Source: Candidatus Margulisiibacteriota bacterium (GTDB taxonomy: Bacteria > Margulisbacteria > Marinamargulisbacteria > JBFWNS01). From it: a stretch of DNA of 64,000 nucleotides. The stretch spans positions 320,001 to 384,000 of the forward strand of contig JBFWNS010000001.1 in assembly GCA_050250935.1 (NCBI GenBank). Reading direction: 5' to 3'. The notes below the pieces were generated by a model. That model did no database searches. It saw only the letters and a list, made by a program, of their open reading frames with translations, and had not been told where the DNA came from. A program made the position numbers and the translations under genes. Position 1 is the first letter of the stretch. The number at the start of each line of letters is the position of its first letter. Positions 44,802 to 64,000 of this stretch are shown piece by piece.

Positions 44802-45413
44802 ATGGGACCAGAATCCATCAAAAAAAGAGACAAAGAAGCCAGCATTCAAAAGCTTCTGGCCGCTGGGGTAAAGGTTTTTTCGACCTATGGCTACGACGCG
44901 GCAACCACCAAGCGTATTGCCCAAGAAGCCGGCATGAACGAATCGCTCATCAGCCGCTATTTCGATGGCAAAGCGGGGCTATTGGTGGAAATTATTCGTA
45001 GTTTTATAGAAAAAGAATGCGACCATGGCACCCTGAAAAACTACCCTGAAGGGGATACGCTAGAAGCTGAAATGCTTCATTTTTTTAGCTCGAAACTCAA
45101 ACATTATTTGGCTGTAAAACCCTTCTTAAAAGTGGTTTTTTCCAGGGCAATTATCGACCCAAAGGTGGCCAAAGAAGTTCAAATTAGAACGGCAAAAGGC
45201 AGCGCTTCCAAGCTTTTAGAACGATTAAGAGCCCTTCAAACCCGGGGTCAAATTCGGGCAGATGTGGATGTCGAAAAAACCTGCTTCACCATTAACAACA
45301 CCTGTTTTTCCATGGGATTTTTTGGACACACGGTTATGGGGTTGGACAAAGACTATATTTGGGGGGCTTTGACCGATTTCGCCAGGGATTTTTCAAAAGG
45401 ACTGTCCACCTAG
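44802..45413 (+). CDS. TetR/AcrR family regulator, divergent from efflux operon
   Basis: FSTYGYDAATTKRIAQEAGMNESLISRYFDGKAGL HTH. Confidence 0.95.
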   Translation: MGPESIKKRDKEASIQKLLAAGVKVFSTYGYDAATTKRIAQEAGMNESLISRYFDGKAGLLVEIIRSFIEKECDHGTLKNYPEGDTLEAEMLHFFSSKLKHYLAVKPFLKVVFSRAIIDPKVAKEVQIRTAKGSASKLLERLRALQTRGQIRADVDVEKTCFTINNTCFSMGFFGHTVMGLDKDYIWGALTDFARDFSKGLST

Positions 45414-46269: not shown

Positions 46270-46707
46270 TTAATTCTCCCTTCCGATTAAATCGTCTAAA
46301 TAGTGCCTCAACCGCTCGATTTCCTGGGTCATCAGGTGGACGTCTTTGAAGACGGGGTTGTACAACGCTTCGGCCTTTTCCAGCGCTTCTTTGCCGGGTT
46401 TGGACAAGGCCAACATTTTTCGCCGTTCGTCCTGAGGATCGTTACAACTGATGATATAGGCCCGACGCTGGAGTCGCTCGAGGGTTTGGCTTAGGGTTCC
46501 TGGCGTTACCTTAAGGGCTTTGGCCAAGGCCAATGGACTGGCTGTTGGGCGATCGGCCAGGGTGGTCATAAACAACCATTGCACCAAGCTTAGCCCACTT
46601 TTACCCTCTAAAACTTTATTGAGCTGTTGAAACAACAGATTGACGGCCATCAGTTGTTTAAGGGTCTTGGGATCGTATTCGAAGGGGGAATCCATGTTAT
46701 GTATCAT
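46270..46707 (-). CDS. MarR family transcriptional regulator
   Basis: GLSLVQW, LAKALKV..GTLSQTLERL, DPQDERRK..LS..G. Confidence 0.88.
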   Translation of the reverse strand: MIHNMDSPFEYDPKTLKQLMAVNLLFQQLNKVLEGKSGLSLVQWLFMTTLADRPTASPLALAKALKVTPGTLSQTLERLQRRAYIISCNDPQDERRKMLALSKPGKEALEKAEALYNPVFKDVHLMTQEIERLRHYLDDLIGREN

Positions 46708-50380: not shown

Positions 50381-51127
50381 TTAGCCGGCCTCCCCAACCC
50401 GGGACAACCCCTTGGCCTGGAGATATCCCTTAATCGCGGCATAAAACGCAATTAGCGTGGGCAGTAAAAATCCCAAGTAGTGGATGTGTAAAAACAAAAT
50501 AGCCGCCACCACCGACCCCAAACAAAACGAGAGAAGACTGCCAATCCTCAGTTTATTCGCCCGTTGTTCTTTGGTTTTGCTTTGTTTGGCCGTATAAGGG
50601 TACAGCACATGGGTGACGCTAATTCCCAAGTCTGTGATCATTCCGGTTAGGTGGGTGGTTCGCAACGTGGCACCAGACGCTGTGCTGATGGCCGCGTTTT
50701 GAAGACCGCTGGCAAAGGACAATAAAATTAACAAGACATACTCTTCATTGATGGTTCCACTGTGTCCAAACACCACAAAAAAATTAAAATAACCCATCAC
50801 CGTCACCAGCAATAAGCTGAAGCCAGCAAGAGCCATCACCAGGCTATAATTTTTTGGGTTTTTGTGAAAACGGCGATCCACCAAAAAAGCCGATAGCATC
50901 ACCCCCGACAGGAAAAATAAGGGCACCGATAGCAACCCAAGTCCACTTACCCATTGGTGTTTGGCCATGCCAATACCAAACAAGGTCGCAAACCCCGTCA
51001 CGTGGGAGACAAACCTCCCACAGGCCAAATAGCCCCCCGCATTAATACTCCCCGCCAAAAAGCTCAAGAGCAGCCAATCCAAATAGACAGAGGGCGCAAC
51101 GGCCTCATCGATACGGTGCTTAAACAT
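50381..51127 (-). CDS. YoaK/DUF1275 family membrane protein
   Basis: LSFLAGSINA, FVSHVTG, GLQNA, RTTHLTG..TDLG. Confidence 0.9.
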   Translation of the reverse strand: MFKHRIDEAVAPSVYLDWLLLSFLAGSINAGGYLACGRFVSHVTGFATLFGIGMAKHQWVSGLGLLSVPLFFLSGVMLSAFLVDRRFHKNPKNYSLVMALAGFSLLLVTVMGYFNFFVVFGHSGTINEEYVLLILLSFASGLQNAAISTASGATLRTTHLTGMITDLGISVTHVLYPYTAKQSKTKEQRANKLRIGSLLSFCLGSVVAAILFLHIHYLGFLLPTLIAFYAAIKGYLQAKGLSRVGEAG

Positions 51128-51557
51128 TGGCCTCGAAGCGCATCAAAGCCTCAATTAACCGCCTCGGCACCCGAGTAGGCTTCCATTTTTCTTCGTTCAG
51201 CGCGGCCAAGACCACTTCCGCTTCGGCCATGGTTGTGTCGTTTTTTAAAAACCGGGTTTTCACGGTAAAGGTGGATTGGGTCAAGGCAACCATTTTGGTT
51301 TCAACACTAAAATAGTCCCCAAACACCAAGGGTTTAAAATAGCGAACATGGACATCGATAGGCACAAAGCCCATTTTTTCTGCCTGAAAATCGGTGTAGG
51401 GGCAACCCAACGCTTCCAAATATTCAATGCGCCCCGCCTCCATCCAATGGACATAGCGGGCATGGTACACCACCTGGGCGGCATCCGTGTCTCCAAAATA
51501 CACCCGGTGATGCCAAAACGTTGCCTTTCCAATGGGGTTATACGCGGCTGTTGTCAT
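51120..51557 (-). CDS. YbgC/FadM family acyl-CoA thioesterase
   Basis: RVYFGDTDAAQVVYHARYVHWMEAGR. Confidence 0.92.
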   Translation of the reverse strand: MTTAAYNPIGKATFWHHRVYFGDTDAAQVVYHARYVHWMEAGRIEYLEALGCPYTDFQAEKMGFVPIDVHVRYFKPLVFGDYFSVETKMVALTQSTFTVKTRFLKNDTTMAEAEVVLAALNEEKWKPTRVPRRLIEALMRFEANV

Positions 51558-52678
51558 GCGAATAACGCGTTGTATTCTTTCAGGGCAAACACATCGGTCA
51601 TGCCCGCAACATAATCGGCGACAACCCGGGCAATGGGATAGTCGGCACTGATTTTAGACCGGTAATTTTCGGACAACAATTTGGGGTCTTCAGTAAAGGC
51701 TTCGTACAGGGCTCGAATAATCTGCTGCCCTTTCTTATTCATGCGATACACGCTGTAATGCGAATAAAAGGTATGAAACAAATAGTGTCTCAGGGCCTTG
51801 TTTTTTTCTTTCATCTCGGGGCTAAATTGAACCACCACCTGATGCACCTTTTGTAACTCTTCGAAGGTGTGGATACCCTTGTCGGCAATGGCCGCCCTCG
51901 TGGTATGCACTACATCATCAATTTGCCAGGAAATTAGGTAGCTGTTGATGAGATATTTAAGATCGGCATCGGAAAGATTGCTATAGGTTTTCTGGATCGC
52001 TTTTTTGGCTTCTTTCCACAGCACCACTTGGCTTTCAAGTTCAGCGTGGGTCAAAATGGTCGAGGTTAAACCATCGTCGAGGTCGTGATTGTTATAGGCA
52101 ATTTCGTCGGCCAAATTCACCAATTGGGCTTCGATGGTCGATACGGCATGAACCCTGTCCGGTTGGTCCCAAGGCGTTGTGTGTTTCATCAACCCCATCC
52201 GCACCTCGTGGGATAAATTCAGGCCAGGGAATTGGGGATATTTGGTTTCCAATCGATCAACAATGCGCAAACTGTGGGCATTGTGCTCGAACCCCCCATC
52301 GTCTTTAAGCAAGCGGCTTAATTCTCGTTCGCCGGAATGCCCAAACGGGGTATGTCCCAAATCGTGGGCCAAGGCAATACATTCAGACAAATCTTCGTTA
52401 ACCCGCAATAGTCGGGACAGATGCCTCGAAATTTGGGCTACTTCCAGGGTATGGGTCAGACGAGAGCGATAATGGTCTGATTCGTTGGCAATAAAAACCT
52501 GGGTTTTGTGCTTCAGCCGACGAAAGGCCTTGGCATGAATAATGCGATCACGGTCGCGTTGAAAACAGGTGCGGTTTTGCGAGGGCTCTTCTGGAAAAAT
52601 CCGCCCTTGAGAGCATTTCGCCAAGACCGCGTAAGGGGCAAGAATCTGTTCTTCAACAGCTTCAAATTGCGTCCTCAC
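51554..52678 (-). CDS. dgt: Deoxyguanosinetriphosphate triphosphohydrolase
   Basis: FQRDRDRI, RRLKHKTQVF, RLTHTLEVAQ, HDLGHTPFGHSGE, DYVAGMTD. Confidence 0.96.
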   Translation of the reverse strand: MRTQFEAVEEQILAPYAVLAKCSQGRIFPEEPSQNRTCFQRDRDRIIHAKAFRRLKHKTQVFIANESDHYRSRLTHTLEVAQISRHLSRLLRVNEDLSECIALAHDLGHTPFGHSGERELSRLLKDDGGFEHNAHSLRIVDRLETKYPQFPGLNLSHEVRMGLMKHTTPWDQPDRVHAVSTIEAQLVNLADEIAYNNHDLDDGLTSTILTHAELESQVVLWKEAKKAIQKTYSNLSDADLKYLINSYLISWQIDDVVHTTRAAIADKGIHTFEELQKVHQVVVQFSPEMKEKNKALRHYLFHTFYSHYSVYRMNKKGQQIIRALYEAFTEDPKLLSENYRSKISADYPIARVVADYVAGMTDVFALKEYNALFA

Positions 52679-52693
52679 GCGGCGTTCCCTGGC

Positions 52694-53500
52694 CTATACC
52701 AACGAATAGCGGCTGAATCGAACCACAGCCGCAGCACCCAATACTTCTTTAACCGATTTGGAAGGATCTTTGATGAACTCTTGTTCCACCAAACAAATTT
52801 CTTTGTAGAATTTTTGAAGACGCCCTTCGATAACTTTGTCCAAAAAGTTGGGGTTTTTGCCTTCGTTCACCGCTTTGTTGCGGATGATTTCTTTTTCTTT
52901 TTCCAACTCTTCTGCAGGTACTTGAGAGGCCTGAACCACCATGGGATTGCTGGCTGCCACTTGCATGGCCACGTCTTTGCCCAAATCTTCGGCTACGGCT
53001 TGGTCAAAATCGACCAAAACTCCGATTTTGCCATTGGAATGAACATAGTGCCCCAAAGCGCCTTGGCTTTCGAAGCGCTCAAAGCGTTTAACACCAATGT
53101 TTTCACCCAACTTCAAAACAGCTTCAGACAACACGGCTTGAAGGTCTTTGCCATCCACCGACAACCCCGACAACTGATCTACTGTTGTTTGCCCGCCAGC
53201 CAAAACGGCATTGGCAATGGTTGTCCCAAGGGCAATAAAGGTTTCGTTTCCGGCCACGAAATCGGTTTCGCAGTTCAGCTCTAAAATCACACCGTTTTTC
53301 CCTGAAACGGCTGTAAAAATACGCCCTTCTGAGGTTTCTCGGTCTGCTTTTTTAGAGGCTGTTGCCAACCCTTTTTCGCGCAGGTATTTCACTGCGGCTT
53401 CAAAATCGCCTTGGGTTTCGGTAAGGGCTTTTTTGCAGTCCATCATCCCGACACCGGTTTTTTCTCTTAACTCACGAACCAAAGATGCTGAAATTTCCAT
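52694..53500 (-). CDS. tsf: Elongation factor Ts
   Basis: LREKTGVGMMDCKKAL, ELNCETDFVA. Confidence 0.98.
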   Translation of the reverse strand: MEISASLVRELREKTGVGMMDCKKALTETQGDFEAAVKYLREKGLATASKKADRETSEGRIFTAVSGKNGVILELNCETDFVAGNETFIALGTTIANAVLAGGQTTVDQLSGLSVDGKDLQAVLSEAVLKLGENIGVKRFERFESQGALGHYVHSNGKIGVLVDFDQAVAEDLGKDVAMQVAASNPMVVQASQVPAEELEKEKEIIRNKAVNEGKNPNFLDKVIEGRLQKFYKEICLVEQEFIKDPSKSVKEVLGAAAVVRFSRYSLV

Positions 53501-53516
53501 AACTACTCTCTCCAAA

Positions 53517-54401
53517 TTAGTCGGCTATTTTTTTCTTGGGGCTGGTGGCTACTTCTTTGGCCACTGCAGCAGGATCGGTTGCGCCAACAGAGGCGGCTTC
53601 TTCAACCCATTTTTCGTCTTCATCTTGCCAGGTTTCTTCGTCGAAGGCTTCCAAATCGGCCATGACAAATTGTTCGCCATTTTCGCCGGCTTCTTCGCCA
53701 GTTAATTCGGTAGAAACACCTTCAGCATGACCATCCATAACGGCTTTGGCCATGATCGAACAGATCAGTTTGATGGCCCGGATGGCATCGTCGTTGGCAG
53801 GGATGGGATATTGAATACCTGTGGGATCGGCGTTGGTATCGACAACACCAATGATGGGAACACCCAAACGCAAGGCTTCTTTGATGGCCAATTGCTCTTT
53901 GGTGGTATCCACAATAAACAGGGCAGAAGGCAATCCGTGCATGTCTTTAATGCCATCCAAATGGTATTTCAATTTGGCCAGGGCTTTTTTCTTTCTGGAC
54001 GCTTCTTTGTTGGACAATTGATCAAAAACACCGGTGGCAAGCTGCTTTTCGTAGTTTTTCAATTTCAAAATACTACGACGCAGGGTGATGTTGTTGGTTA
54101 AAGTCCCACCCAACCAGCGGTGGTTAACATAGGGCATTTTGCAGCCTTCAGCTTCAGACTGAACCGCATCCTGAGCTTGTTTTTTGGTTCCAACAAACAG
54201 GACGGTTCCGCCGTTTTTAACCGTATCTTTAACAAATTGATACGATTTTTTGATGAGCTTCAAGGATTGTTGAAGATCGATGACGTGGATACCATTACGA
54301 GCCGTGAAAATATAACGGTTCATTTTGGGATGGCGGCGCTTGGTTTGGTGACCAAAATGCACACCGGATTCAAGGAGCTGACGCATGGTTACGACTTCCA
54401 T
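53517..54401 (-). CDS. rpsB: 30S ribosomal protein uS2 with acidic C-terminal tail
   Basis: LLESGVHFGH, FVGTKKQA, RWLGGTLTN, DTNADP, PANDDAIRAI. Confidence 0.99.
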   Translation of the reverse strand: MEVVTMRQLLESGVHFGHQTKRRHPKMNRYIFTARNGIHVIDLQQSLKLIKKSYQFVKDTVKNGGTVLFVGTKKQAQDAVQSEAEGCKMPYVNHRWLGGTLTNNITLRRSILKLKNYEKQLATGVFDQLSNKEASRKKKALAKLKYHLDGIKDMHGLPSALFIVDTTKEQLAIKEALRLGVPIIGVVDTNADPTGIQYPIPANDDAIRAIKLICSIMAKAVMDGHAEGVSTELTGEEAGENGEQFVMADLEAFDEETWQDEDEKWVEEAASVGATDPAAVAKEVATSPKKKIAD

Positions 54402-54581: not shown

Positions 54582-54779
54582 ATGCCAGTTCCAAAAAGAA
54601 GACGATCCAAGTCAAAATCTCGTATTAAAACCGCCCATTGGAAACTCGATATGCCCCAGTTGCGGCCCTGCCCCAGCTGCGGTGCCTTGTCAGTTCCTCA
54701 CCGTGCTTGCCAAGCCTGCGGCACCTACAAAGGTCGCCAGGTCATCCCAGCCAAACAGAAAAAAACCAAGGAATCCTAG
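54582..54779 (+). CDS. rpmF: 50S ribosomal protein bL32 (zinc-ribbon type)
   Basis: MPVPKRRRSKS, CPSCG...PHRACQACGTYKGR. Confidence 0.97.
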   Translation: MPVPKRRRSKSKSRIKTAHWKLDMPQLRPCPSCGALSVPHRACQACGTYKGRQVIPAKQKKTKES

Positions 54780-55769
54780 GTGAAAATCGCCCTAGATGTC
54801 ATGGGAGGGGACCATGCTCCGGGTGAAATTATTAAGGGCGCTTATTTGGCCCTTAACACCTTTGATGCCCACCTGATTTTGGTAGGCCCATCTGCGCTAC
54901 TCGAGCAAGAATTACCCAAATATGGGACTTTTCCCCATCCCCGCCTTTCCATTCACCATGCCCCAGAGTCTGTGGATATGGGAGAATCTCCCGCCGAGTC
55001 GTTTCGCAAAAAGAAACAATCGTCTATTCGTGTGGGCCTGGAACTGGTTAAAGAGGGGCAAGCCGATGCCTTTGTTTCGGCAGGCAACACCGGAGCCGTT
55101 ATGGCCACTTCTACCCTGGTTTTGGGACGGATTCCCAACATCGAACGGCCCGCTATTGCAGCCACCCTGCCGTCTGAAAAAGGACCTTTTGTAATGCTAG
55201 ACATGGGGTCTAGCGTTGATTGCAAACCCGAACATTTGGCCCAATTTGCCTTGATGGGGCACTATTTTTCGTCGCTAGTTCTAGACCGAGAGACGCCCAG
55301 GGTTGGGCTTTTAAACATTGGCGAGGAACCTGGCAAAGGCAACCTTGCTTGCCAAGAAGCCCATGCCTTGATTCAAGCCATGCCCTTGAATTTTATTGGA
55401 AACGTAGAAGGCAAAGACATATTAAAGGGCGATGCCGACGTTATTGTTTGTGACGGGTTTGTGGGAAACAACCTGCTTAAATTTGGCGAAGGGGTTTCCA
55501 CTTTGTTTTATGATTTCTTTAAAAAAGAAGCCAAACAATCGGTGCTATCGTTGATGGCGCTGTTGCTTCTCAAGCCGGCTCTGAAGCGGTTTAGAAAACA
55601 ATTTGATTATCAAGAATATGGTGGTGCGCCGCTTTTGGGCGTTAATGGGGTTTCGATTATTGCCCATGGCAAATCGTCGGCCAAAGCCATCGAAAGCGCC
55701 ATTGGCAACGCCATTCATGCCGTGGAACAACGCATGGTCGAAAAGATTACCAAGGCCGTTTCCCAGTGA
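54780..55769 (+). CDS. plsX: Phosphate acyltransferase
   Basis: IALDVMGGDHAP, SAGNTGA, LLNIGEE..KG, CDGFVGN, YGGAPLLG. Confidence 0.98.
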   Translation: MKIALDVMGGDHAPGEIIKGAYLALNTFDAHLILVGPSALLEQELPKYGTFPHPRLSIHHAPESVDMGESPAESFRKKKQSSIRVGLELVKEGQADAFVSAGNTGAVMATSTLVLGRIPNIERPAIAATLPSEKGPFVMLDMGSSVDCKPEHLAQFALMGHYFSSLVLDRETPRVGLLNIGEEPGKGNLACQEAHALIQAMPLNFIGNVEGKDILKGDADVIVCDGFVGNNLLKFGEGVSTLFYDFFKKEAKQSVLSLMALLLLKPALKRFRKQFDYQEYGGAPLLGVNGVSIIAHGKSSAKAIESAIGNAIHAVEQRMVEKITKAVSQ

Positions 55770-56761
55770 CATTGCCGGCTGTTGGCCTTTTGGGCGTGGG
55801 CAAATTCTTACCCCCAAAGGTAGTGGCCAACGACGACTTTGTGGCCATGGGCTTGGACACTTCTGACGCTTGGATTACCGAAAGAACCGGCATTAAAGAG
55901 CGTCGAATCGCCGATGCCGATATGGCCACCTCCGACCTGGCTTTTGAGGCTGCCAAAGCGGCGCTGGCCCACGCGGGAAAAACCGCTCAGGATATCGATT
56001 TAATCGTCGTGGCCACCAGCACCCCGGACCATCCTTTGTTTCCTTCTGTGGCCTGCCAATTGCAAGATCGCCTTGGTGCCCGTTCGGTCGGGGCTTTTGA
56101 TGTTTCTGCGGCCTGCTCTGGATTTAATTTTGCCCTTTCGGTGGGCACTCAAGCCATTCAAACGGGCAACGCCAACACGGTTTTGGTGGTCAGTGCCGAC
56201 TGCTTAAGCCGATTTTTGAATTGGAAAGACCGGGGCACCTGCATTTTGTTTGGCGACGGCGCCGGGGCTGTTGTTTTGGGCAAGGTTCAAGCAGGCTATG
56301 GGATTTTGGCCACCGAACTGCGTTCCGAAGGGCAATACGGGTCCATTTTAAATGTCCCTGCTGGTGGCAGTAAAAAACGACTTCCCGACCAGGAAGACGA
56401 AAGCTTTATTTATATGGATGGCAAAGCCGTCTTTAAAGTTGCGGTTCACACCGTTGTGGACACCGTTCATTCGATCTTAAAAACGGCGGGCCTGTCCCCG
56501 GATCAGATTCAGCTATTGGTTCCCCACCAGGCCAATGTGCGCATTATCGAGAAGATCCGGGAAACCCTGCATCTGTCCCCAGAACAGGTCATGGTCAACA
56601 TTGCCCAATATGGCAACACCTCGGCCTCTTCGATTCCGATTGCCCTGACCGAAGCCGTTGAAGCCAACCGCATTCAGGATGGCGATCTTGTTTTAACCAT
56701 TGGCTTTGGCGCAGGGTTCACCTGTGCGGCCAGCATCATTCGTTGGGGAGGTTTTCTATGA
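55766..56761 (+). CDS. fabH: Beta-ketoacyl-ACP synthase III
   Basis: DTSDAWITERTGI, AACSGF, LFGDGAGA, PHQAN.RI, GNTSASSIP. Confidence 0.98.
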   Translation: MTLPAVGLLGVGKFLPPKVVANDDFVAMGLDTSDAWITERTGIKERRIADADMATSDLAFEAAKAALAHAGKTAQDIDLIVVATSTPDHPLFPSVACQLQDRLGARSVGAFDVSAACSGFNFALSVGTQAIQTGNANTVLVVSADCLSRFLNWKDRGTCILFGDGAGAVVLGKVQAGYGILATELRSEGQYGSILNVPAGGSKKRLPDQEDESFIYMDGKAVFKVAVHTVVDTVHSILKTAGLSPDQIQLLVPHQANVRIIEKIRETLHLSPEQVMVNIAQYGNTSASSIPIALTEAVEANRIQDGDLVLTIGFGAGFTCAASIIRWGGFL

Positions 56762-57684
56762 AGCGATACGCTGTAGTTTTTCCGGGACAAGGCTCCCAAT
56801 CCGTGGGCATGGGCCAAACCATTTTAGAGGCCTATCCCGACACAAACCGGTTTTTTGAAGAAGCTGAAGCGGTTCTGAAAACCCCACTTAAAGCTATCTG
56901 TTTGGAAGGCCCAGCCGAAACCCTCACCCAAACCGCCAATGCACAACCTGGGATTTTTACGGTTTCCATGGCCTTGTTTTCCCTTTTAAAAGCGGCCGGT
57001 TTAACGCCAGCCTATGTGGCCGGTCACAGCTTGGGCGAAATTACCGCCTATGTGGCCGCCGATGTTTTATCGCTTAAAGACGGGCTGACTGTGATTGCCG
57101 CAAGAGGGGCAGCCATGGCAGCCGCCCATCCCAGCGATCGGTCCGCGATGGCTGCAGTAATGGGCATGGATTTCGACGCCCTGGCTTCGATTCTAGCACC
57201 CTTTCAAGCCGAACCCGTGGTAATGGCCAACATCAACAGCCCCGGACAAATTGTTATTTCTGGTGAAAAAGACGGGGTTACCCGGGCCATCGACGCCATC
57301 AAAGCCCAGGGTGCCAAAGTGATCCCCTTAAACGTGAGTGGGGCCTTTCATTCTCCGCTAATGAAACCCGCTTCCGAAGCGTTGGAATCGGCCATTGCAC
57401 CCCTGGATTTTCACAACGCTGCTTTTCCCATTGTGTTGAATCGCAGCGCCCAGCCCGAAACCGAAGCCGAGGCCCTGAAGGCCAATTTACCCCTTCAAGT
57501 GATTTCGTCAGTGGACTGGGTAGGCACCCTCAAAACCCTGGCAGACAAGGTCGATGCATTTATTGAATGCGGCCCAGGAAAAGTGCTCACCGGCCTGATC
57601 AAAAAAACAGTGCCCGACAAACCCGTTGTGACGGTTTCAGACAAAGACAGCCTAGATGCCTTTTTGGCATCGGATTGGAGATAA
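56758..57684 (+). CDS. fabD: Malonyl-CoA-ACP transacylase
   Basis: FPGQGSQ, GHSLGE, NINSPGQIVISG, VSGAFHSPLM, ECGPGKVL. Confidence 0.98.
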   Translation: MKRYAVVFPGQGSQSVGMGQTILEAYPDTNRFFEEAEAVLKTPLKAICLEGPAETLTQTANAQPGIFTVSMALFSLLKAAGLTPAYVAGHSLGEITAYVAADVLSLKDGLTVIAARGAAMAAAHPSDRSAMAAVMGMDFDALASILAPFQAEPVVMANINSPGQIVISGEKDGVTRAIDAIKAQGAKVIPLNVSGAFHSPLMKPASEALESAIAPLDFHNAAFPIVLNRSAQPETEAEALKANLPLQVISSVDWVGTLKTLADKVDAFIECGPGKVLTGLIKKTVPDKPVVTVSDKDSLDAFLASDWR

Positions 57685-57686
57685 GA

Positions 57687-58427
57687 ATGGTTCAAGATAA
57701 AGTTGCTGTTGTCACCGGCAGTTCCCGAGGCATTGGATTTACCATTGCCGATACCCTCGCCGCCAGTGGCGCCAAACTGGTGGTTTCAGCCACCACCCAA
57801 GAAGGGGCTCAAAAAGCCGCCGACAAACTTAAAGCTGCCCATGGCGTCGAGGTTTTGGCCGTCAAAGCCGATGTCAGCAAAGCCGAAGATGCCCAGGCCC
57901 TCATTAAGGCGGCCATGGATACTTTTGGTCGTGTGGACATTTTGGTTAACAATGCCGGCATTACCCGAGACAATTTGCTCTTGCGCATGAGCGACCAAGA
58001 TTGGGACGATGTTATTCGGGTCAACCTAGGTTCGGTTTTCCACACCGTAAAAGCGGTGTCTCGGCCGATGTTAAAACAGCGGTTCGGACGCATCATCAAT
58101 ATTACCTCGGTGGTTGGGGTCATGGGCAATCCAGGCCAAGCCAACTATGCCGCAGCCAAAGCTGGCATGATCGGATTCACCAAAACCGTGGCCAAAGAAT
58201 TTGGGGCAAAAGGCATCACCTGCAACGCGGTTGCGCCCGGTTTTATCGAAACCGACATGATTGAATCTTTACCGAAGGAATATCTTGATACTATAATGGC
58301 CCTCGTTCCGGTTAAGCGGTTGGGAACTTCCCAAGAAGTAGCACAGCTTGTACTATTTCTCGCTTCGGAAACATCGTCGTATATCACCGGCCAGGTGATT
58401 AACATCGACGGCGGCCTTCACATGTAA
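57687..58427 (+). CDS. fabG: 3-oxoacyl-ACP reductase
   Basis: TGSSRGIG, NNAGITRD, GNPGQANYAAAKAG, APGFIETDM. Confidence 0.98.
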   Translation: MVQDKVAVVTGSSRGIGFTIADTLAASGAKLVVSATTQEGAQKAADKLKAAHGVEVLAVKADVSKAEDAQALIKAAMDTFGRVDILVNNAGITRDNLLLRMSDQDWDDVIRVNLGSVFHTVKAVSRPMLKQRFGRIINITSVVGVMGNPGQANYAAAKAGMIGFTKTVAKEFGAKGITCNAVAPGFIETDMIESLPKEYLDTIMALVPVKRLGTSQEVAQLVLFLASETSSYITGQVINIDGGLHM

Positions 58428-58457
58428 GTTAAACACCAATTTTTAGGAGGATTTTTC

Positions 58458-58706
58458 ATGGCTCTATCTCAGGACGAAGTATTTTCAAAGGTAAAATCAG
58501 TCATTGTTGAACAATTGGGGGTTTCTGAAGACGAAGTTACCACCGAAGCTTCTTTTACGGACGACTTGGGAGCAGACTCTTTGGACACTGTGGAATTGGT
58601 CATGGCTCTTGAAGAAGAATTCGGAACCGAAATCGCAGACGAAGATGCCGAAAAATTAACAACCGTTGGCAAAACTGTAGAGTATATCCTTAAAAACGTT
58701 AAATAA
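58458..58706 (+). CDS. acpP: Acyl carrier protein
   Basis: [28 protein letters not shown]. Confidence 0.99.
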
Positions 58707-58735
58707 CTTGTTTTTTCATTCAAACAAGTCCCTTT

Positions 58736-58776
58736 AAAACAAATCGTAACGCCTCGGTGTTACGATTTGTTTTTTT
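58736..58776 (+). terminator. Intrinsic terminator after acpP
   Basis: AAAACAAATCGTAACGC-CTCG-GTGTTACGATTTGTTTTTTT hairpin with U tract. Confidence 0.85.
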
Positions 58777-58812
58777 AGGGTCTCGCTGTACGCTATCATT
58801 GGAGGAACACTT

Positions 58813-60051
58813 ATGGATAAAAAACGAGTCGTCATCACAGGGTTTGGAGCCCTGACCCCTATTGCAAACAACGCCACAGATTTTTGGACAGCACTAAAAG
58901 CCGGAAAATCGGGGATTACCCGCATCGATCGATTCGATACAACCGGTTTTTCGACTCAAATCGCGGGGATGGTCAAAGGCTTTGAACCCGAAAATTTTGT
59001 TGATAAAAAAGAAGCCCGTCGTACCTCTCGGTTTATTTTGTACGGTTTGGCTGCCGCGATGGAAGCCGTTGCCCATTCGGGTTTAGACATTTCTAAAATT
59101 GCCAATCAGGTTGGCGTTGAAGTGGGATCTGGCATCGGCGGCATTGAAGTTTTGGAAGAAACCATCAACACCCTTCGAGAAAAAGGCCCTGCCAGAGTCA
59201 GCCCCTTTACCGTTCCCATGATGATTGTTGACATGGCCGCAGGGATGATCGCCATGAAACTAGGCGCTAAAGGGCCCAACTCTTGTGCGGTAACCGCCTG
59301 CGCCTCTTCCGCCCATTCCATGGCCAATGCCTTCCAGCTGATCGAACGCGGCGAAGCCCTTGCCATGATTACAGGTGGAGCCGAAGCCGCCATCACCCCA
59401 GCCGGGTTGGCCAGCTTTTGTGCCGCCAGATCCTTGTCTGAACGCAATGATGAACCCGAAAAGGCCTCCAGACCCTTCGACAAAGACCGAGACGGATTTG
59501 TCATGGGAGAAGGGGCCGGCATTTTGGTTTTTGAAGAACTCGAACATGCCAAAGCCCGTGGCGCCACGATTTATGCCGAAGTCATCGGATTTGGTAGCAC
59601 CGGCGATGCATATCACATCACAGCTCCGGCCCCAGAAGGGGAAGGTGCAAACCGAGCCATGAGAATGGGCCTCAGAATGGCGAAACTCAAACCCACCGAT
59701 GTGGCATACATTAACGCCCATGGAACCTCGACCCACCTGAACGACCAAAACGAAACCATGGCCATTAAAGACGTGTTTGGCGAGCATGCCCCTAGCTTGA
59801 ACATCAGCTCCATCAAGTCGATGACTGGCCATTTGTTGGGAGCTGCTGGGGCCATCGAAGCCATTTCAACGGCCCTTACCCTCAAAGACGGTATTATTCC
59901 TCCTACCATCAACTGGGAAAATGGCGACGATGTTTGCACCTTGAATTACACCCCTAAAACTGCTGTAAAACGGGATGTGAATTATGCCATTTCCAATTCC
60001 TTTGGGTTTGGCGGCCACAATGCTGTGTTGGTTTTCAAAAAATACCACTAA
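58813..60051 (+). CDS. fabF: Beta-ketoacyl-ACP synthase II
   Basis: VTACAS, SRPFDKDRDGFVMGEGAG, INAHGTST, KSMTGHLLGAAG, SNSFGFGGHN. Confidence 0.98.
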   Translation: MDKKRVVITGFGALTPIANNATDFWTALKAGKSGITRIDRFDTTGFSTQIAGMVKGFEPENFVDKKEARRTSRFILYGLAAAMEAVAHSGLDISKIANQVGVEVGSGIGGIEVLEETINTLREKGPARVSPFTVPMMIVDMAAGMIAMKLGAKGPNSCAVTACASSAHSMANAFQLIERGEALAMITGGAEAAITPAGLASFCAARSLSERNDEPEKASRPFDKDRDGFVMGEGAGILVFEELEHAKARGATIYAEVIGFGSTGDAYHITAPAPEGEGANRAMRMGLRMAKLKPTDVAYINAHGTSTHLNDQNETMAIKDVFGEHAPSLNISSIKSMTGHLLGAAGAIEAISTALTLKDGIIPPTINWENGDDVCTLNYTPKTAVKRDVNYAISNSFGFGGHNAVLVFKKYH

Positions 60052-60140
60052 CGCTTGAGGCTTTTTTTGAAACCTAAGCCGCGCAGCGGGAGGCCGGTTG
60101 GATGGGGTCCAATCGGCCGACCCACACCTGCTGTGCAGGT

Positions 60141-60716
60141 GTGATAACCATTGGCGTAGACGAGGCTGGTCGCGGGGCTTTGGCTGGGCCCGTGGTTGCT
60201 GCAGCCGTTTCTCTTTCGGAAGCAGGTTTGCAATTGCCCCTCATGGATTCCAAGAAGCTTTCCGCAGTAGATCGTGACGCCTTGTTTGAAGCCCTGCATC
60301 GGTCGGGCTCTCGCATTCATGCTGCCTGTTTAAGTGCGCGCTACATCGACAAGACCAATATTCTTAAAGCTACCCTTGTGGCCATGAAACGGGCTGTTGA
60401 TGGACTGCATCTGCGCACGGAACCTTTTTTGGAAATCTTGGTCGATGGCAACAAAGTACCACCCCTTGGCTATGGGCACGTTCAAGCCATTGTCAAAGGC
60501 GATACCTTAATTCCCGCCATTTCAGCAGCCTCGATAATCGCCAAAGTCACCCGAGATCGCATCATGATGGCCTTACATCCTAAGTTTCCTCGCTACCGTT
60601 TTGATCAGCACAAAGGCTATGGCACCGCCGAACACTATGACGCTATATTTGCTTACGGACCTTGCAACTCCCACCGATTGAGCTTTAATTTAACCCGCCA
60701 GGAATCTCTGTTTTGA
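60141..60716 (+). CDS. rnhB: Ribonuclease HII
   Basis: GVDEAGRGALAGPVVAAAV, DSKKL, KGD...ISAASIIAKVTRD, HKGYGT; GTG start chosen (ATG 60102 possible). Confidence 0.95.
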   Translation: MITIGVDEAGRGALAGPVVAAAVSLSEAGLQLPLMDSKKLSAVDRDALFEALHRSGSRIHAACLSARYIDKTNILKATLVAMKRAVDGLHLRTEPFLEILVDGNKVPPLGYGHVQAIVKGDTLIPAISAASIIAKVTRDRIMMALHPKFPRYRFDQHKGYGTAEHYDAIFAYGPCNSHRLSFNLTRQESLF

Positions 60717-61069
60717 GCCGGGAAAAAGGGGCTCTTGGCGAAGCCATTGCCAAAACCTATTTGGAAGGGCAAGGCTATCGAATTTTAGCCCAAAACGCGA
60801 CTTTTAAGGCCGGAGAGTTGGATCTAGTAGCCCAAAGCGACGAAGGCATCTTGGTTTTTGTAGAGGTAAAAGCCTATGGCCCGGGCAGTCTTTTACACCC
60901 CCTTCAGGCTTTAACGGCTAAAAAACGCGGACGCCTGCTCAAAGCGGCTTCGTTGTATTTGCTTCGACTTCGCCTTCAAGATATCCCGCTTCGGTTTGAT
61001 TTGATTTGTATCCAAGCTGGGGCAGTCTCTGAGCATTTTCAAAATGTCTTTGGGAAGGATGTGGTGTAG
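60713..61069 (+). CDS. yraN: YraN (UPF0102) family protein
   Basis: GALGEAIA..YL...GY.IL..N, GELDLVA, LVFVEVK, RFD; typical neighbour of rnhB. Confidence 0.9.
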   Translation: MSREKGALGEAIAKTYLEGQGYRILAQNATFKAGELDLVAQSDEGILVFVEVKAYGPGSLLHPLQALTAKKRGRLLKAASLYLLRLRLQDIPLRFDLICIQAGAVSEHFQNVFGKDVV

Positions 61070-61102
61070 ATTTTCAAAAATACTTTCAGATTTTGACCTT
61101 AA

Positions 61103-61160: not shown

Positions 61161-61490
61161 ATGGCAGTTTCTCATGTAAGTGATTCTACGTTTAAAGCAG
61201 AGGTTCTCGATGTTAAGGACACCCCTGTTTTGGTTGATTTTTGGGCGGAATGGTGTGGCCCTTGCCGCATGTTGGCCCCCGTTGTTGAATCCTTGTCCAA
61301 CAAATTTAGCGCTTCTCTGAAGGTTTGCAAATTGGATACGGATAGTAATCCAGAAACCGCGCAAGCGTTTCAAATTACCGGTATTCCTTGCTGTATTTTG
61401 TTCCAAAACGGCAAAGAAGTCACCCGACTGGTTGGGTATCGTTCCGAGTCTGCCTTTGAGGCCGAACTTAAAAACTTTGTGACGCTTTAG
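61161..61490 (+). CDS. trxA: Thioredoxin
   Basis: VLVDFWAEWCGPCRM; SD GGAGG. Confidence 0.97.
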   Translation: MAVSHVSDSTFKAEVLDVKDTPVLVDFWAEWCGPCRMLAPVVESLSNKFSASLKVCKLDTDSNPETAQAFQITGIPCCILFQNGKEVTRLVGYRSESAFEAELKNFVTL

Positions 61491-61556
61491 GCGTTTAAAC
61501 TTACGGAAAATATGCTACACTTTGTAGCCAATTTTTCCGTTAAAAAAGGAGTCCAA

Positions 61557-62669
61557 ATGGACAAGAAGCGCAAGCTATACAAAATTGGGGATTTGACCAA
61601 ACTGTTGGGCATGACCTCTCGAACCATTCGCTATTACCACCAAGTGGGTATTCTGCAACACATTAAACGTAGCGACGGCAAAATGCGGTTGTTTGATGAT
61701 GAAGATATTGCCATCATCAAAAAAGTTCGCAAATTGCAGGTTGAAGAAGGCCTTACTTTAGAAGTCATCAAAGAACGGCTCTTTGGCACGACCAACGACA
61801 AATCCGACACCGTCATCTTAACCGACAGCACGGCTGCCCTGCCCAAGGCCATGCGCGATCAGCTGAACGTTCAGGTGATTCCTATTCATATTCAAATTGG
61901 CGAGGAAGCCTTTTTGGACGGGATTGATATTGAACCCAAAGAATTTTGGGAAAAAAGCCGTAACCTTCAAATTCGGCCCCAAACCTCTCCTCCCACCGAA
62001 AAAGAATTTGTTCAAACCTATTTGGCTCTCAAAGAAAAAGGGTTTAAGCGCATCTATTCGATTCACTTGTCCTCTACCCTCTCCGAAACCTACAAAAATG
62101 CCCTAAACGCCTCTCACAAAGTGGCCCACGAAATCGAGGTTGTGGCCATCGATTCGAAATCCACTGGCGCAGGCTTGGGGTTGTTGGTTCATTTGATTGC
62201 AGACGCTGTCCACAAAGGCCAAAGCAAAGAACAAATCGACTTGCTGATTACCAAACAAATCCCTTTGATTTTCAAGCTTGTCGCGGTGAATACCTTGGAA
62301 TTTTTGGTTACCGGTGGGGTTATTGCTCCACTGTCGCATAACCAAAAAAACCTGCTTAAAAAATTGTTCGAGTTTAAGCCTGTCATTTCACTGCGCAATG
62401 GCACTGGCGACGTGGAAATTTTGGAATGTGCCAAAGACAGAAAAGACGCCACAGCCCACATGGTTGAATTTTTGGCCGAAGAAATCCGAAGCCGCGGCGG
62501 GTATGTTAAAGAAATCTGCGTGATTTATAACTACATGTACGGCGAGGCCTTGGCCTTGGTAAACCAAATCAAGGAACTTTACCCCCTAACCCCCATTTAT
62601 ATTGAAGAAGGTAGTGCGGTTTTGTCCGCCTATGTTGGCCCCGAAACCATCGGGATTGCCATTATCTAG
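61557..62669 (+). CDS. MerR-type HTH fused to DegV/FakB fatty-acid-binding domain
   Basis: YKIGDLTKLLGMTSRTIRYY..GIL...R.F (MerR HTH), then ILTDSTA, PQTSPP, IHLSSTLSETY, IDSKS, KPVI (DegV); SD AAGGAG. Confidence 0.88.
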   Translation: MDKKRKLYKIGDLTKLLGMTSRTIRYYHQVGILQHIKRSDGKMRLFDDEDIAIIKKVRKLQVEEGLTLEVIKERLFGTTNDKSDTVILTDSTAALPKAMRDQLNVQVIPIHIQIGEEAFLDGIDIEPKEFWEKSRNLQIRPQTSPPTEKEFVQTYLALKEKGFKRIYSIHLSSTLSETYKNALNASHKVAHEIEVVAIDSKSTGAGLGLLVHLIADAVHKGQSKEQIDLLITKQIPLIFKLVAVNTLEFLVTGGVIAPLSHNQKNLLKKLFEFKPVISLRNGTGDVEILECAKDRKDATAHMVEFLAEEIRSRGGYVKEICVIYNYMYGEALALVNQIKELYPLTPIYIEEGSAVLSAYVGPETIGIAII

Positions 62670-62677
62670 GAACACCT

Positions 62678-63175
62678 GTGACCAAAATTGAAAGCGCCAT
62701 TTTAGACATCTTGAAAGTCAATGCCCGACTTCCTTTTTCGGAAGTTGCGGCTTTGGCTGGGGTGGACGAAAAAACGGTCAAAGCCACGGTTAAAAAGCTC
62801 GAAAAACATAAAATCATCAGCCGCTATACCACGGTTATTAACGAGGACAATTTGCCTCAGAAAGACACCCTGGTTCGCGCGCTGATCGAGGTTCGTGTTC
62901 GCCCCGAACGCAAAACAGGCTTCGATGCCATCGCCAAACGCATTGCCCGCTACAAAAATGTTCAGGATCACTTTTTGATTTCGGGTACCTACGACTTTTT
63001 GGTGATCGTTGAAGGACAAACCCTTCAAGAGGTGTCCCGGTTTGTGTCGGACAAATTGGCTTCGATTGACAACGTCATTGGCACCTCCACCCATTTTATT
63101 ATGAAAAAATACAAAGAACATGGGTGTCTGATGGAAGATGATGTGGTTCAGGACCGTCTCGCCGTTAGCCCATGA
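62678..63175 (+). CDS. Lrp/AsnC family regulator (YugG-like)
   Basis: ILDILKVNAR, N-terminal HTH, ALIEVRVRP...GFDAIAKRI, ISGTYD, THFIMKKYK. Confidence 0.92.
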   Translation: MTKIESAILDILKVNARLPFSEVAALAGVDEKTVKATVKKLEKHKIISRYTTVINEDNLPQKDTLVRALIEVRVRPERKTGFDAIAKRIARYKNVQDHFLISGTYDFLVIVEGQTLQEVSRFVSDKLASIDNVIGTSTHFIMKKYKEHGCLMEDDVVQDRLAVSP

Positions 63176-64000
63176 GACAGGATTTTTCCAAAACACTCGA
63201 ACAAATTCCCCCCTCTGGCATTCGCCGTTTTTTTGACCTGGTTGTCGGCGCCAAAGATGTGATTTCGCTGGGCGTTGGGGAGCCCGATTTTATCACCCCT
63301 TGGTCGGTGCGCAGTGCCGCCATTGATGCCATTGAACAAGGGCGCACATCCTATACCTCTAACAATGGGCTTTTGGAGTTACGCCAAGCCATTGTGACCT
63401 ATTTACAGGCCCAGTTTCAGGTTCAGTACAACCCCGTTTCGGAAGTGATTGTCACCTTGGGTGTTTCTGAGGCTGTCGACATTGTGCTTCGAACCATTTT
63501 AAATCCCGGCGACGAGGTTTTGCTGCCAGAACCCGCCTATGTCTGCTATGACCCCTTAATTCGCTTGGCTGGTGGCCAAGTGGTGCATTTGGACACGTCT
63601 GCTACGGGATTTATTCCAGACCCAGCGGTTTTGGAAAAACACATCACCCCCAAAACCAAGGCCATTTTGCTGTGCTCGCCCAGTAATCCGACAGGCCGCA
63701 TTATTCCCAAAGAAACCCTAGAAGCCATTGGCCGATTGGCCATTAAACACGATTTTTGGATTATCGCGGACGAGGTCTATGCCGAGCTTCATTACGACCT
63801 GCCCTTTACCTCGGCAGCGGCTATTCCAGGCCTTCGGGAGCATGTCATTTTGTTGAATGGCTTTTCCAAAGGCTTTGCCATGACGGGCTGGCGTTTGGGG
63901 TTTCTGGCAGCTCCCGAACCCATGGTGTCCCGAGCCCTGAAAATTCACCAATACTGTATGCTGTGTGCACCGATTATGTCCCAATATGCGGCCATTGAAG
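63172..64000 (+). CDS. Class I/II PLP aminotransferase (YugH/AlaT-like), 3' truncated; absent from ORF track
   Basis: MRQDFSKTLEQIPPSGIRRFFDLV..DVISLGVGEPDF.TP, SPSNPTG, ADEVYAEL, NGFSKGFAMTGWRLG; ATGA overlap with the Lrp gene. Confidence 0.93.
   Translation, partial: MRQDFSKTLEQIPPSGIRRFFDLVVGAKDVISLGVGEPDFITPWSVRSAAIDAIEQGRTSYTSNNGLLELRQAIVTYLQAQFQVQYNPVSEVIVTLGVSEAVDIVLRTILNPGDEVLLPEPAYVCYDPLIRLAGGQVVHLDTSATGFIPDPAVLEKHITPKTKAILLCSPSNPTGRIIPKETLEAIGRLAIKHDFWIIADEVYAELHYDLPFTSAAAIPGLREHVILLNGFSKGFAMTGWRLGFLAAPEPMVSRALKIHQYCMLCAPIMSQYAAIE

Follow-up and report, generated by a model that had tools for sequence, protein, structure and literature searches.

We propose, with moderate confidence and from comparative sequence analysis, that an HTH-DegV fusion protein encoded in the 64,000-nucleotide stretch of Margulisbacteria DNA analysed here (the window) is an autoregulated repressor of competence genes that binds the palindrome T[ATG]ACGT[ACT]A. 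The fusion is kept across much of the uncultured phylum Margulisbacteria, a sister lineage of Cyanobacteria, and the comparisons described below support its being a transcription factor whose DegV domain serves no kinase any more.

Domain architecture and spread of the fusion

The fusion gene and its two domains occupy the following positions of the window.

61557..62669, + strand: HTH-DegV fusion gene (MerR-type HTH), 370 aa; ORF, Pfam, NCBIfam, AlphaFold model
61578..61778, + strand: winged HTH, residues 8-74; Pfam MerR_1 and model secondary structure, closest solved HTH that of GlnR
61812..62663, + strand: DegV/FakB-fold domain, residues 86-369; alignment to PDB identifier 4x9x, Foldseek

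The ORF is free of internal stops. Pfam assigns residues 8-74 of its product to MerR_1 (E 5e-15) and residues 86-370 to DegV (E 2e-55), and NCBIfam TIGR00762 scores 209 bits against a cut-off of 99.7. The FakB1 equivalog of NCBIfam reaches 98 bits, below its cut-off of 350, and all NCBIfam MerR equivalogs score far below theirs. The AlphaFold model of the 370-residue protein has a mean pLDDT of 92.2 and a pTM of 0.90, and its best Foldseek matches are FakB1/DegV structures (TM 0.84-0.89 by target, E 2e-24). Pfam, NCBIfam and Foldseek thus agree with the preliminary description of a MerR HTH and a full DegV domain in one ORF. In the model the HTH ends in a short helix (residues 68-76), the first DegV strand begins at residue 85, and there is no long coiled-coil dimerisation helix between the two domains. 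A homodimer prediction scored 0.01 against a mark of 0.42, a value that we take as speaking neither for nor against a dimer.

An assembly artefact, raised earlier as a possible objection, can be ruled out because 66 full-length fused relatives, 32-57% identical to the window protein, are found among the 120 homologues listed. The names of the homologue records point to Candidatus Margulisiibacteriota and Marinamargulisbacteria, with a few records labelled otherwise. Counted from the match table, the fusion is present in about 65 of 146 Margulisbacteria genomes, namely in 47 of the 55 genomes of the window's class, in 17 genomes of families f30-f37 and, as a divergent copy of 300 aminoacids, in one further genome (G001); none was found in the 65 genomes of families f38-f50. 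A quick tree of DegV domains, with an untested root and with long branches meeting, splits 19 stand-alone DegV proteins from 55 fusions with a support of 97 and is compatible with a single origin.

A DegV domain without its kinase

The window protein was aligned with PDB identifier 4x9x, using FakB2 residue numbering. The carboxylate ligands Thr143 and Ser176 are kept, and Val255, Lys293 and Tyr359 stand in place of the catalytic Arg, the FakA-binding Arg and the His, respectively. The motifs read earlier from the letters are accordingly present in the translation: PQTSPP (residues 141-146) and SSTLSETY (residues 172-179) are retained, and GGV (62313-62321) and YVGP (62631-62642) lie exactly where they had been placed. 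In FakB1, the carboxylate is held by Thr62, Ser95 and His270, whereas Arg173 has the catalytic role and FakA and membranes are bound through Arg205 (PMC8892158). The columns equivalent to these residues differ between the fusions and stand-alone DegV proteins. The Arg173 column reads R in 4/54 fusions vs 18/19 stand-alone proteins, the Arg205 column R in 2/54 vs 16/19 and the His270 column H in 9/54 vs 18/19; for the carboxylate ligands, T is found in 26/54 fusions vs 17/19 and S in 42/54 vs 18/19. The low retention of the carboxylate Thr and the bad erosion of the DegV domain in marine lineages speak against lipid sensing. A lipid ligand is plausible for the window protein, in which most canonical DegV positions are kept, and less plausible for the marine copies.

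The window's genome (95.85% complete) yielded neither a DAK2 nor a YloV match, so no FakA was found there, and DAK2 occurs in only two of the 146 phylum genomes, in one of which it adjoins a stand-alone DegV of the ordinary type. With FakA absent and the catalytic Arg and the His lost in most fusions, the earlier suggestion of a former kinase carrier that is no longer coupled to a kinase holds. The comparison with FakB/DegV proteins (S. aureus FakB1 and FakB2, PDB identifiers 5uto and 4x9x; T. thermophilus, PDB identifier 2dt8) can be summed up as a shared fold at 22-29% identity with the carboxylate Thr and Ser in common, whereas the fusion differs in carrying an HTH, in lacking the catalytic Arg and the His, in having Lys for the FakA-binding Arg and in residing in a genome without FakA. 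Elsewhere in this genome, after ribH, lies a gene for a 552-residue protein without DAK2, whose N-terminal half is of low complexity and helical and whose C-terminal DegV domain is degenerate (L002, 493-2151, G000:C2). Similar frames of 500-590 aminoacids are present in about 25 genomes of the class, and the 552-residue protein could be a partner of the fusion.

Gene neighbourhood and the lipid genes

The neighbours of the fusion in the window are listed below, with counts from a neighbourhood set of 38 loci (37 relatives and the window, some of them close kin).

54582..61069, + strand: rpmF-plsX-fabH-fabD-fabG-acpP-fabF-rnhB-yraN block; neighbour here, with no perfect palindrome inside
61161..61490, + strand: trxA, thioredoxin; upstream neighbour of the fusion in 20/38 loci
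62678..63175, + strand: Lrp/AsnC regulator; downstream neighbour of the fusion in 20/38 loci
63172..64000, + strand: class I/II aminotransferase, running off the window; same cluster, in 22/38 loci

The fusion had been described as lying 1.5 kb past the fab cluster. Its start is indeed 1,506 bp from the stop codon of fabF; however, three genes (rnhB, yraN and trxA) intervene, and the sequence ahead of trxA reads like a separate promoter. Fab genes are near the fusion in only 2/38 loci, set against the usual neighbours trxA, Lrp and the aminotransferase; the fabF-rnhB-yraN block is conserved across the class but is followed by the fusion in no more than two genomes. The window also carries rpsB, tsf and a dGTPase gene (51120-54401) in inverted orientation with the fab block between, and in many relatives these genes precede trxA on the same strand; the inversion is a local rearrangement. 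The earlier statement that the window has no FapR/FabT/FadR-type gene needs qualification. TetR is the family of FabR and DesT and MarR that of FabT, and a TetR-family gene (44802-45410) and a MarR-family gene (46273-46707) are both present. The former is divergent from an MFS/HlyD/outer-membrane efflux operon and the latter lies behind trehalose synthesis genes, neighbours that point to efflux and trehalose rather than lipids.

The reading put forward at the outset for this gene, namely that its product senses fatty acids and governs the plsX-fab operon as a counterpart of FapR or FabT, has some arguments on its side. The DegV fold is kept, as judged by Foldseek, and in three genomes (G069, G071 and G028), as well as for the divergent copy of G001, the fusion immediately precedes yceD-rpmF-plsX in the same orientation, and therefore self-repression could read through into plsX; in a further genome (G070) it lies 5.5 kb ahead of these genes. 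In two of these genomes (G069 and G071), the fab operon contains an acyl-CoA dehydrogenase gene and etfBA, with a ferredoxin-fused EtfA, between fabH and fabD (L118, L119). However, fab genes are close to the fusion in about 7 of 65 genomes, leaving about 58 without a close fab gene, although short contigs may hide some. The palindrome is absent from all 59 rpmF upstream regions (that is, before rpmF-plsX) and from all 28 fabF upstream regions, and precedes acpP in 1/28, a result that covers this one candidate motif at the rpmF, fabF and acpP promoters. No lipid gene occurs among the 35 genes found behind promoter-embedded sites, and inspection by eye of the 59 rpmF upstream regions showed no shared motif apart from the -35/-10 boxes. 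FapR/FabT/FadR-type regulators have their operator at plsX/fab promoters, where the candidate motif of the fusion is absent (rpmF, fabF) or rare (acpP). The fab neighbourhood thus appears mostly incidental, control of the lipid genes is not borne out by these counts, and we consider a regulator of the plsX-fab operon very unlikely.

The palindrome at the promoters of the fusion genes

The palindrome T[ATG]ACGT[ACT]A is present upstream of the fusion in 14 of 43 regions, as compared to a mean of 1.4 and a maximum of 4 in 100 shuffles, with the reservation that the pattern was chosen after viewing the same regions and that 7 of the 14 positives belong to two related families. The 43 regions are what remains of 55 extracted ones after removal of 11 near-duplicates and one short region. 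Among 10 new metagenome loci, a perfect site is found in only two, one of which is a fragment at the end of a contig, with its DegV part out of view; several of these loci have the fusion directly behind trxA. In two relatives with the fusion close behind trxA, a perfect site lies at the trxA promoter. The candidate sites of the window, to which no strand is assigned, are the following.

61501..61508: site 1 of the putative auto-operator, TTACGGAA, differing from the palindrome at one position; immediately precedes an extended -10-like box
61535..61542: site 2 of the putative auto-operator, TTCCGTTA, likewise differing at one position; at a distance of 34 bp from the first
61094..61101: weak site with one mismatch, immediately ahead of the -35-like hexamer of trxA; possibly a chance match

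The extended -10-like box, TGcTACACT at 61513-61521, was read by eye from the sequence. Paired one-mismatch sites such as sites 1 and 2 occur in 6 of the 901 upstream regions of this genome; by best single site score, the fusion promoter ranks only 160th of 901, and the whole window holds 76 one-mismatch matches. Rfam gave no match on four loci, nor did a Pfam scan of a 25-residue piece. A redox regulon, for which tpx, ahpC and trxA among the first matches in the genome had spoken, was dropped, as tpx and the divergently oriented comM have one site in common and a trxA site of at least 9 bits is present in only 2/17 loci.

The palindrome at DNA-uptake and recombination genes

The phylum was searched for copies of the palindrome that coincide with a -35 box, and 63 loci were viewed, of which 30 were given by the tool, 20 were picked by eye as promoter-like, blind to the gene, and 13 came from five genomes. 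Genome-wide, the promoter-embedded palindrome shows no excess over a reversed control. The 35 genes behind promoter-embedded sites, classified by Pfam, include five SSB, five pilins, four ComM/YifB-type ATPases and one each of ComEC, RecQ and T2SSF; the others are three ORF6N-domain genes, six unrelated genes and nine of unknown type. The ORF6N-domain genes whose promoters carry the palindrome (L326, L332, L339) come from three genomes and two classes. In this genome, perfect sites also precede the gene of a 1685-residue RHS-repeat protein and an IS200-like transposase (L547, G000:C1 545000-559000; L549). A plain 10-mer scan of another genome (G069) gave 42 matches, most of the inspected ones inside genes, and was discarded as too unspecific. 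ComM is reported to process the transformation D-loop together with YraN (10.1101/2024.02.06.579203), and the roles of Ssb, ComEC and ComM have been described (PMC12378983).

For comM, genes were taken by family search (TIGR00368) and not by motif, a perfect site was sought within 200 nt, and close kin and four genomes already seen through the motif were excluded. The site is present in 26 of 47 fusion-bearing genomes from 15 of 23 families, as compared to a mean of 1.7 and a maximum of 7 in 200 shuffles; the 21 genomes without it include all five of family f28, and in f23 one of four has the site. Since comM follows yraN in the fusion-less families f38-f50, these were scanned to 1.5 kb, with 0/30 sites within 200 nt and 2/30 within the longer distance. 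Three genomes of the window's class in which no fusion was found (G010, G012, G022; 87-92% complete) have no site at comM, and among 13 genomes with either no confirmed fusion or a divergent one the site is found in two (G009, 55% complete, and G061, 77%). These counts, like those that follow, are not independent, as the genomes are related and the fusion-less ones belong mostly to one lineage.

Stand-alone ssb genes have the site in 15/20 cases (9/13 among those not seen earlier; the fusion of one genome, G064, is unconfirmed), vs 0/9 in f36-f37 and 0/8 in f38-f50, where 8 of 21 loci were judged by eye to be stand-alone. At the pilin gene a perfect site is seen in 4/22 and a near match in 11 more, vs 0/8 in fusion-less genomes. 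There is no conserved site at dprA (1/30, operon-internal) and none at the prepilin peptidase (0/30). Throughout the class, dprA lies directly behind a conserved gene of 385 aminoacids (L458-L487), presumably dxr as read from its N-terminus. Within this genome, comM ranks first, the pilin 25th and ssb 239th of 901 upstream regions; fabF ranks 43rd through a near match that falls within the final codons of acpP, and no site precedes comF (rank 409), recA (735) or comEC (833).

Most sites overlap the -35 box, the spacer or the region just after the -10 box of promoters with normal 17-bp spacing, and some lie about 30 bp upstream of the -35 box. The commonest distance between adjoining sites is 30-33 bp, seen in 18 of 37 spacings. 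That the fusion, when bound to the palindrome, is an activator, or works in both directions as TnrA does, is in our judgement distinctly unlikely. TnrA, which has a related HTH, is mainly an activator (PMC4335299), and the sites about 30 bp upstream of the -35 box would suit an activator, but the majority position at the -35 box, spacer or start region and the 17-bp spacing are unlike the long spacers of MerR activators. Another reading is that the protein has no specific regulon and is a DNA-membrane tether or nucleoid protein whose DegV surface touches membranes. RacA is an example of a MerR-like HTH protein that anchors chromosomes. FakB docks on anionic membranes (PMC8892158), but the membrane- and FakA-binding Arg is retained in only 2/54 fusions and the palindrome lies in promoters of functionally linked genes without being enriched genome-wide, and such a tether is extremely improbable.

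In the fusion-less genomes, a sigma-54-like TGGCA-N6-TTGC element precedes yraN-comM in 15/30 cases (L356-L385), and in f37 it precedes comM. The upstream regions of stand-alone ssb (L489-L537), also of f37 and G001, formed part of the same survey of sigma-54-like promoters. RpoN was found in G069, G075 and G085 and not in the window's genome or G057. This pattern suggests sigma-54 control of competence genes in the fusion-less lineages, in f37 and in G001.

The likely reader of the palindrome

The residues of the fusion that are expected to read bases are located as follows.

61620..61634, + strand: recognition-helix R22, R25 and Y26, corresponding to TnrA Arg28, Arg31 and Tyr32 by an inferred mapping through the GlnR alignment

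The nearest solved HTH to that of the fusion is that of GlnR, and the HTH is 54% identical to the window protein vs 31% for the DegV domain. R22, R25 and Y26 are invariant in 67/67 fusions, and in a wider set R22 is kept in 53/54 and R25 in 54/54. TnrA Arg28, Arg31 and Tyr32 read Gua4, Thy5, Thy7' and Thy3 (PMC4335299), and the palindrome T[ATG]ACGT[ACT]A consists of two abutting GTNA half-sites. The fusion protein is the likely binder of the palindrome because the latter sits at the fusion's own promoters, because R22, R25 and Y26 match the TnrA readers of GTNA, the palindrome half-site, and because the site tracks the protein, being absent from f38-f50, from the three genomes of the class in which no fusion was found and from f37, where the helix is altered. 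The geometry of the palindrome, which is not that of the TnrA site, counts against this assignment. In f37, three fusions have a recognition helix changed at T23 or R22, and no palindrome is seen at the comM and ssb promoters tested in these genomes.

The poor fit of the LexA and Lrp distributions also argues for the fusion. LexA has its own boxes at lexA promoters and was not found in two site-bearing genomes (G019 and G066, each 95% complete). In f12, none of the eight genomes has the Lrp neighbour and the comM site is present in 5/5; f36-f37, in turn, have the neighbour and lack the site. The LexA-box-like palindromes at lexA promoters vary within the phylum between GTAAAC-N4-GTTTAC, GTAC-N4-GTAC and GAAC-N4-GTTC (L446-L457, L557, L558, G000:C4 near 93480). 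We regard it as unlikely that the palindrome is read by another factor, be it a transcription factor or an alternative sigma factor, with the fusion gene a mere member of the regulon. Many sites coincide with the -35 hexamer (TTGACG occurs 14 times at comM promoters vs 2 at rpmF promoters), the regulators of these genomes were only partly covered by the comparison, and the f28 fusions keep the HTH without a comM site (0/5), all of which would agree with such a factor. Against it stand the ill-fitting LexA and Lrp and the occurrence of sites also in the spacer and after the -10 box, repeated at about 30 bp, unlike a sigma element.

Proposed mechanism and relation to known regulators

We hypothesize that the fusion protein binds the palindrome at its own gene and at comM, the stand-alone ssb and the major type IV pilin, and sometimes at comEC, recQ and pilC, and that, when bound, it would repress its own gene together with a small set of DNA-uptake and recombination genes. 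Repression is suggested because the sites lie on the -35 box, in the spacer or after the -10 box, often as copies about 30 bp apart. The DegV domain would plausibly act as a switch, in that a fatty acid or a related lipid, bound in the former FakB pocket, would weaken the hold on DNA and so start competence. Granted the rest of this reading, a lipid of this kind releasing the DNA is the most likely signal, although we rate it as possible and somewhat short of probable; ligand-free dimerisation or partner binding is an alternative role for the DegV domain. A bolder version, which we consider doubtful, would make the fusion a master competence repressor whose DegV pocket is filled by free fatty acids that stem from cell lysis or from a host, with release of the comM, ssb and pilin promoters, and would have the fusion-less sister lineages move the same genes under sigma-54.

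FapR, CarH/LitR and DhaQ-DhaS are precedents in which a domain derived from an enzyme or carrier is reused as the sensing part of a regulator, as proposed for the fusion. The DhaQ structure (PDB identifier 2iu4) is among the Foldseek matches of the fusion model, with part of the fold shared; the HTH or ligand domains and the targets of these systems differ from those of the fusion. Classical MerR activators (MerR, CueR, ZntR) have in common with the fusion the winged HTH of Pfam MerR/MerR_1, but they possess a long dimerisation helix, which the model of the fusion lacks, and their operator lies inside a 19-20 bp -35/-10 spacer, whereas the candidate sites of the fusion lie in promoters read with 17-bp spacing. 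TnrA and GlnR come closer. They share with the fusion system a MerR-like winged HTH without a coiled coil, Arg/Arg/Tyr base readers, the GTNA half-site and normally spaced promoters (PMC4335299). They differ in a short disordered C-terminal tail that binds glutamine synthetase, in place of which the fusion has a folded DegV domain of 285 aminoacids, and in an extra N-terminal dimer helix, whereas residues 1-7 of the fusion are non-helical in the model. The TnrA site spans 17 bp with half-sites spaced 7 bp, whereas the candidate site of the fusion is a contiguous palindrome of 8-10 bp in which the half-sites abut, and the putative targets of the fusion are DNA-uptake genes.

ComX, Sxy/TfoX-CRP, QstR and RocC are regulators of competence. 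So are ComK, Rok and RocR (PMC12378983). The target set of the known competence regulators (comM, ssbB, pilins, comEC) overlaps that behind the palindrome, but none of them is an HTH-DegV fusion, and the fusion would act by direct repression at sigma-70 promoters. In the part of the literature on DegV, MerR, Margulisbacteria, fatty acids and competence that was searched, no HTH-DegV regulator or regulon of one was found, and a lipid-triggered competence switch would be of a kind not found in that literature.

The control of competence is understood in only a few model genera and varies among them, and a named protein, a site and target promoters can now be proposed for an uncultured phylum next to Cyanobacteria. 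The fusion appears to represent the reuse of a fatty-acid-carrier fold in a transcription factor without its kinase, and control of the same genes would have changed, at the level of lineages, between sigma-70 promoters under a repressor and sigma-54-like promoters. Should the ligand be a lipid, membrane debris or contact with a host may be linked to horizontal gene transfer in these bacteria.
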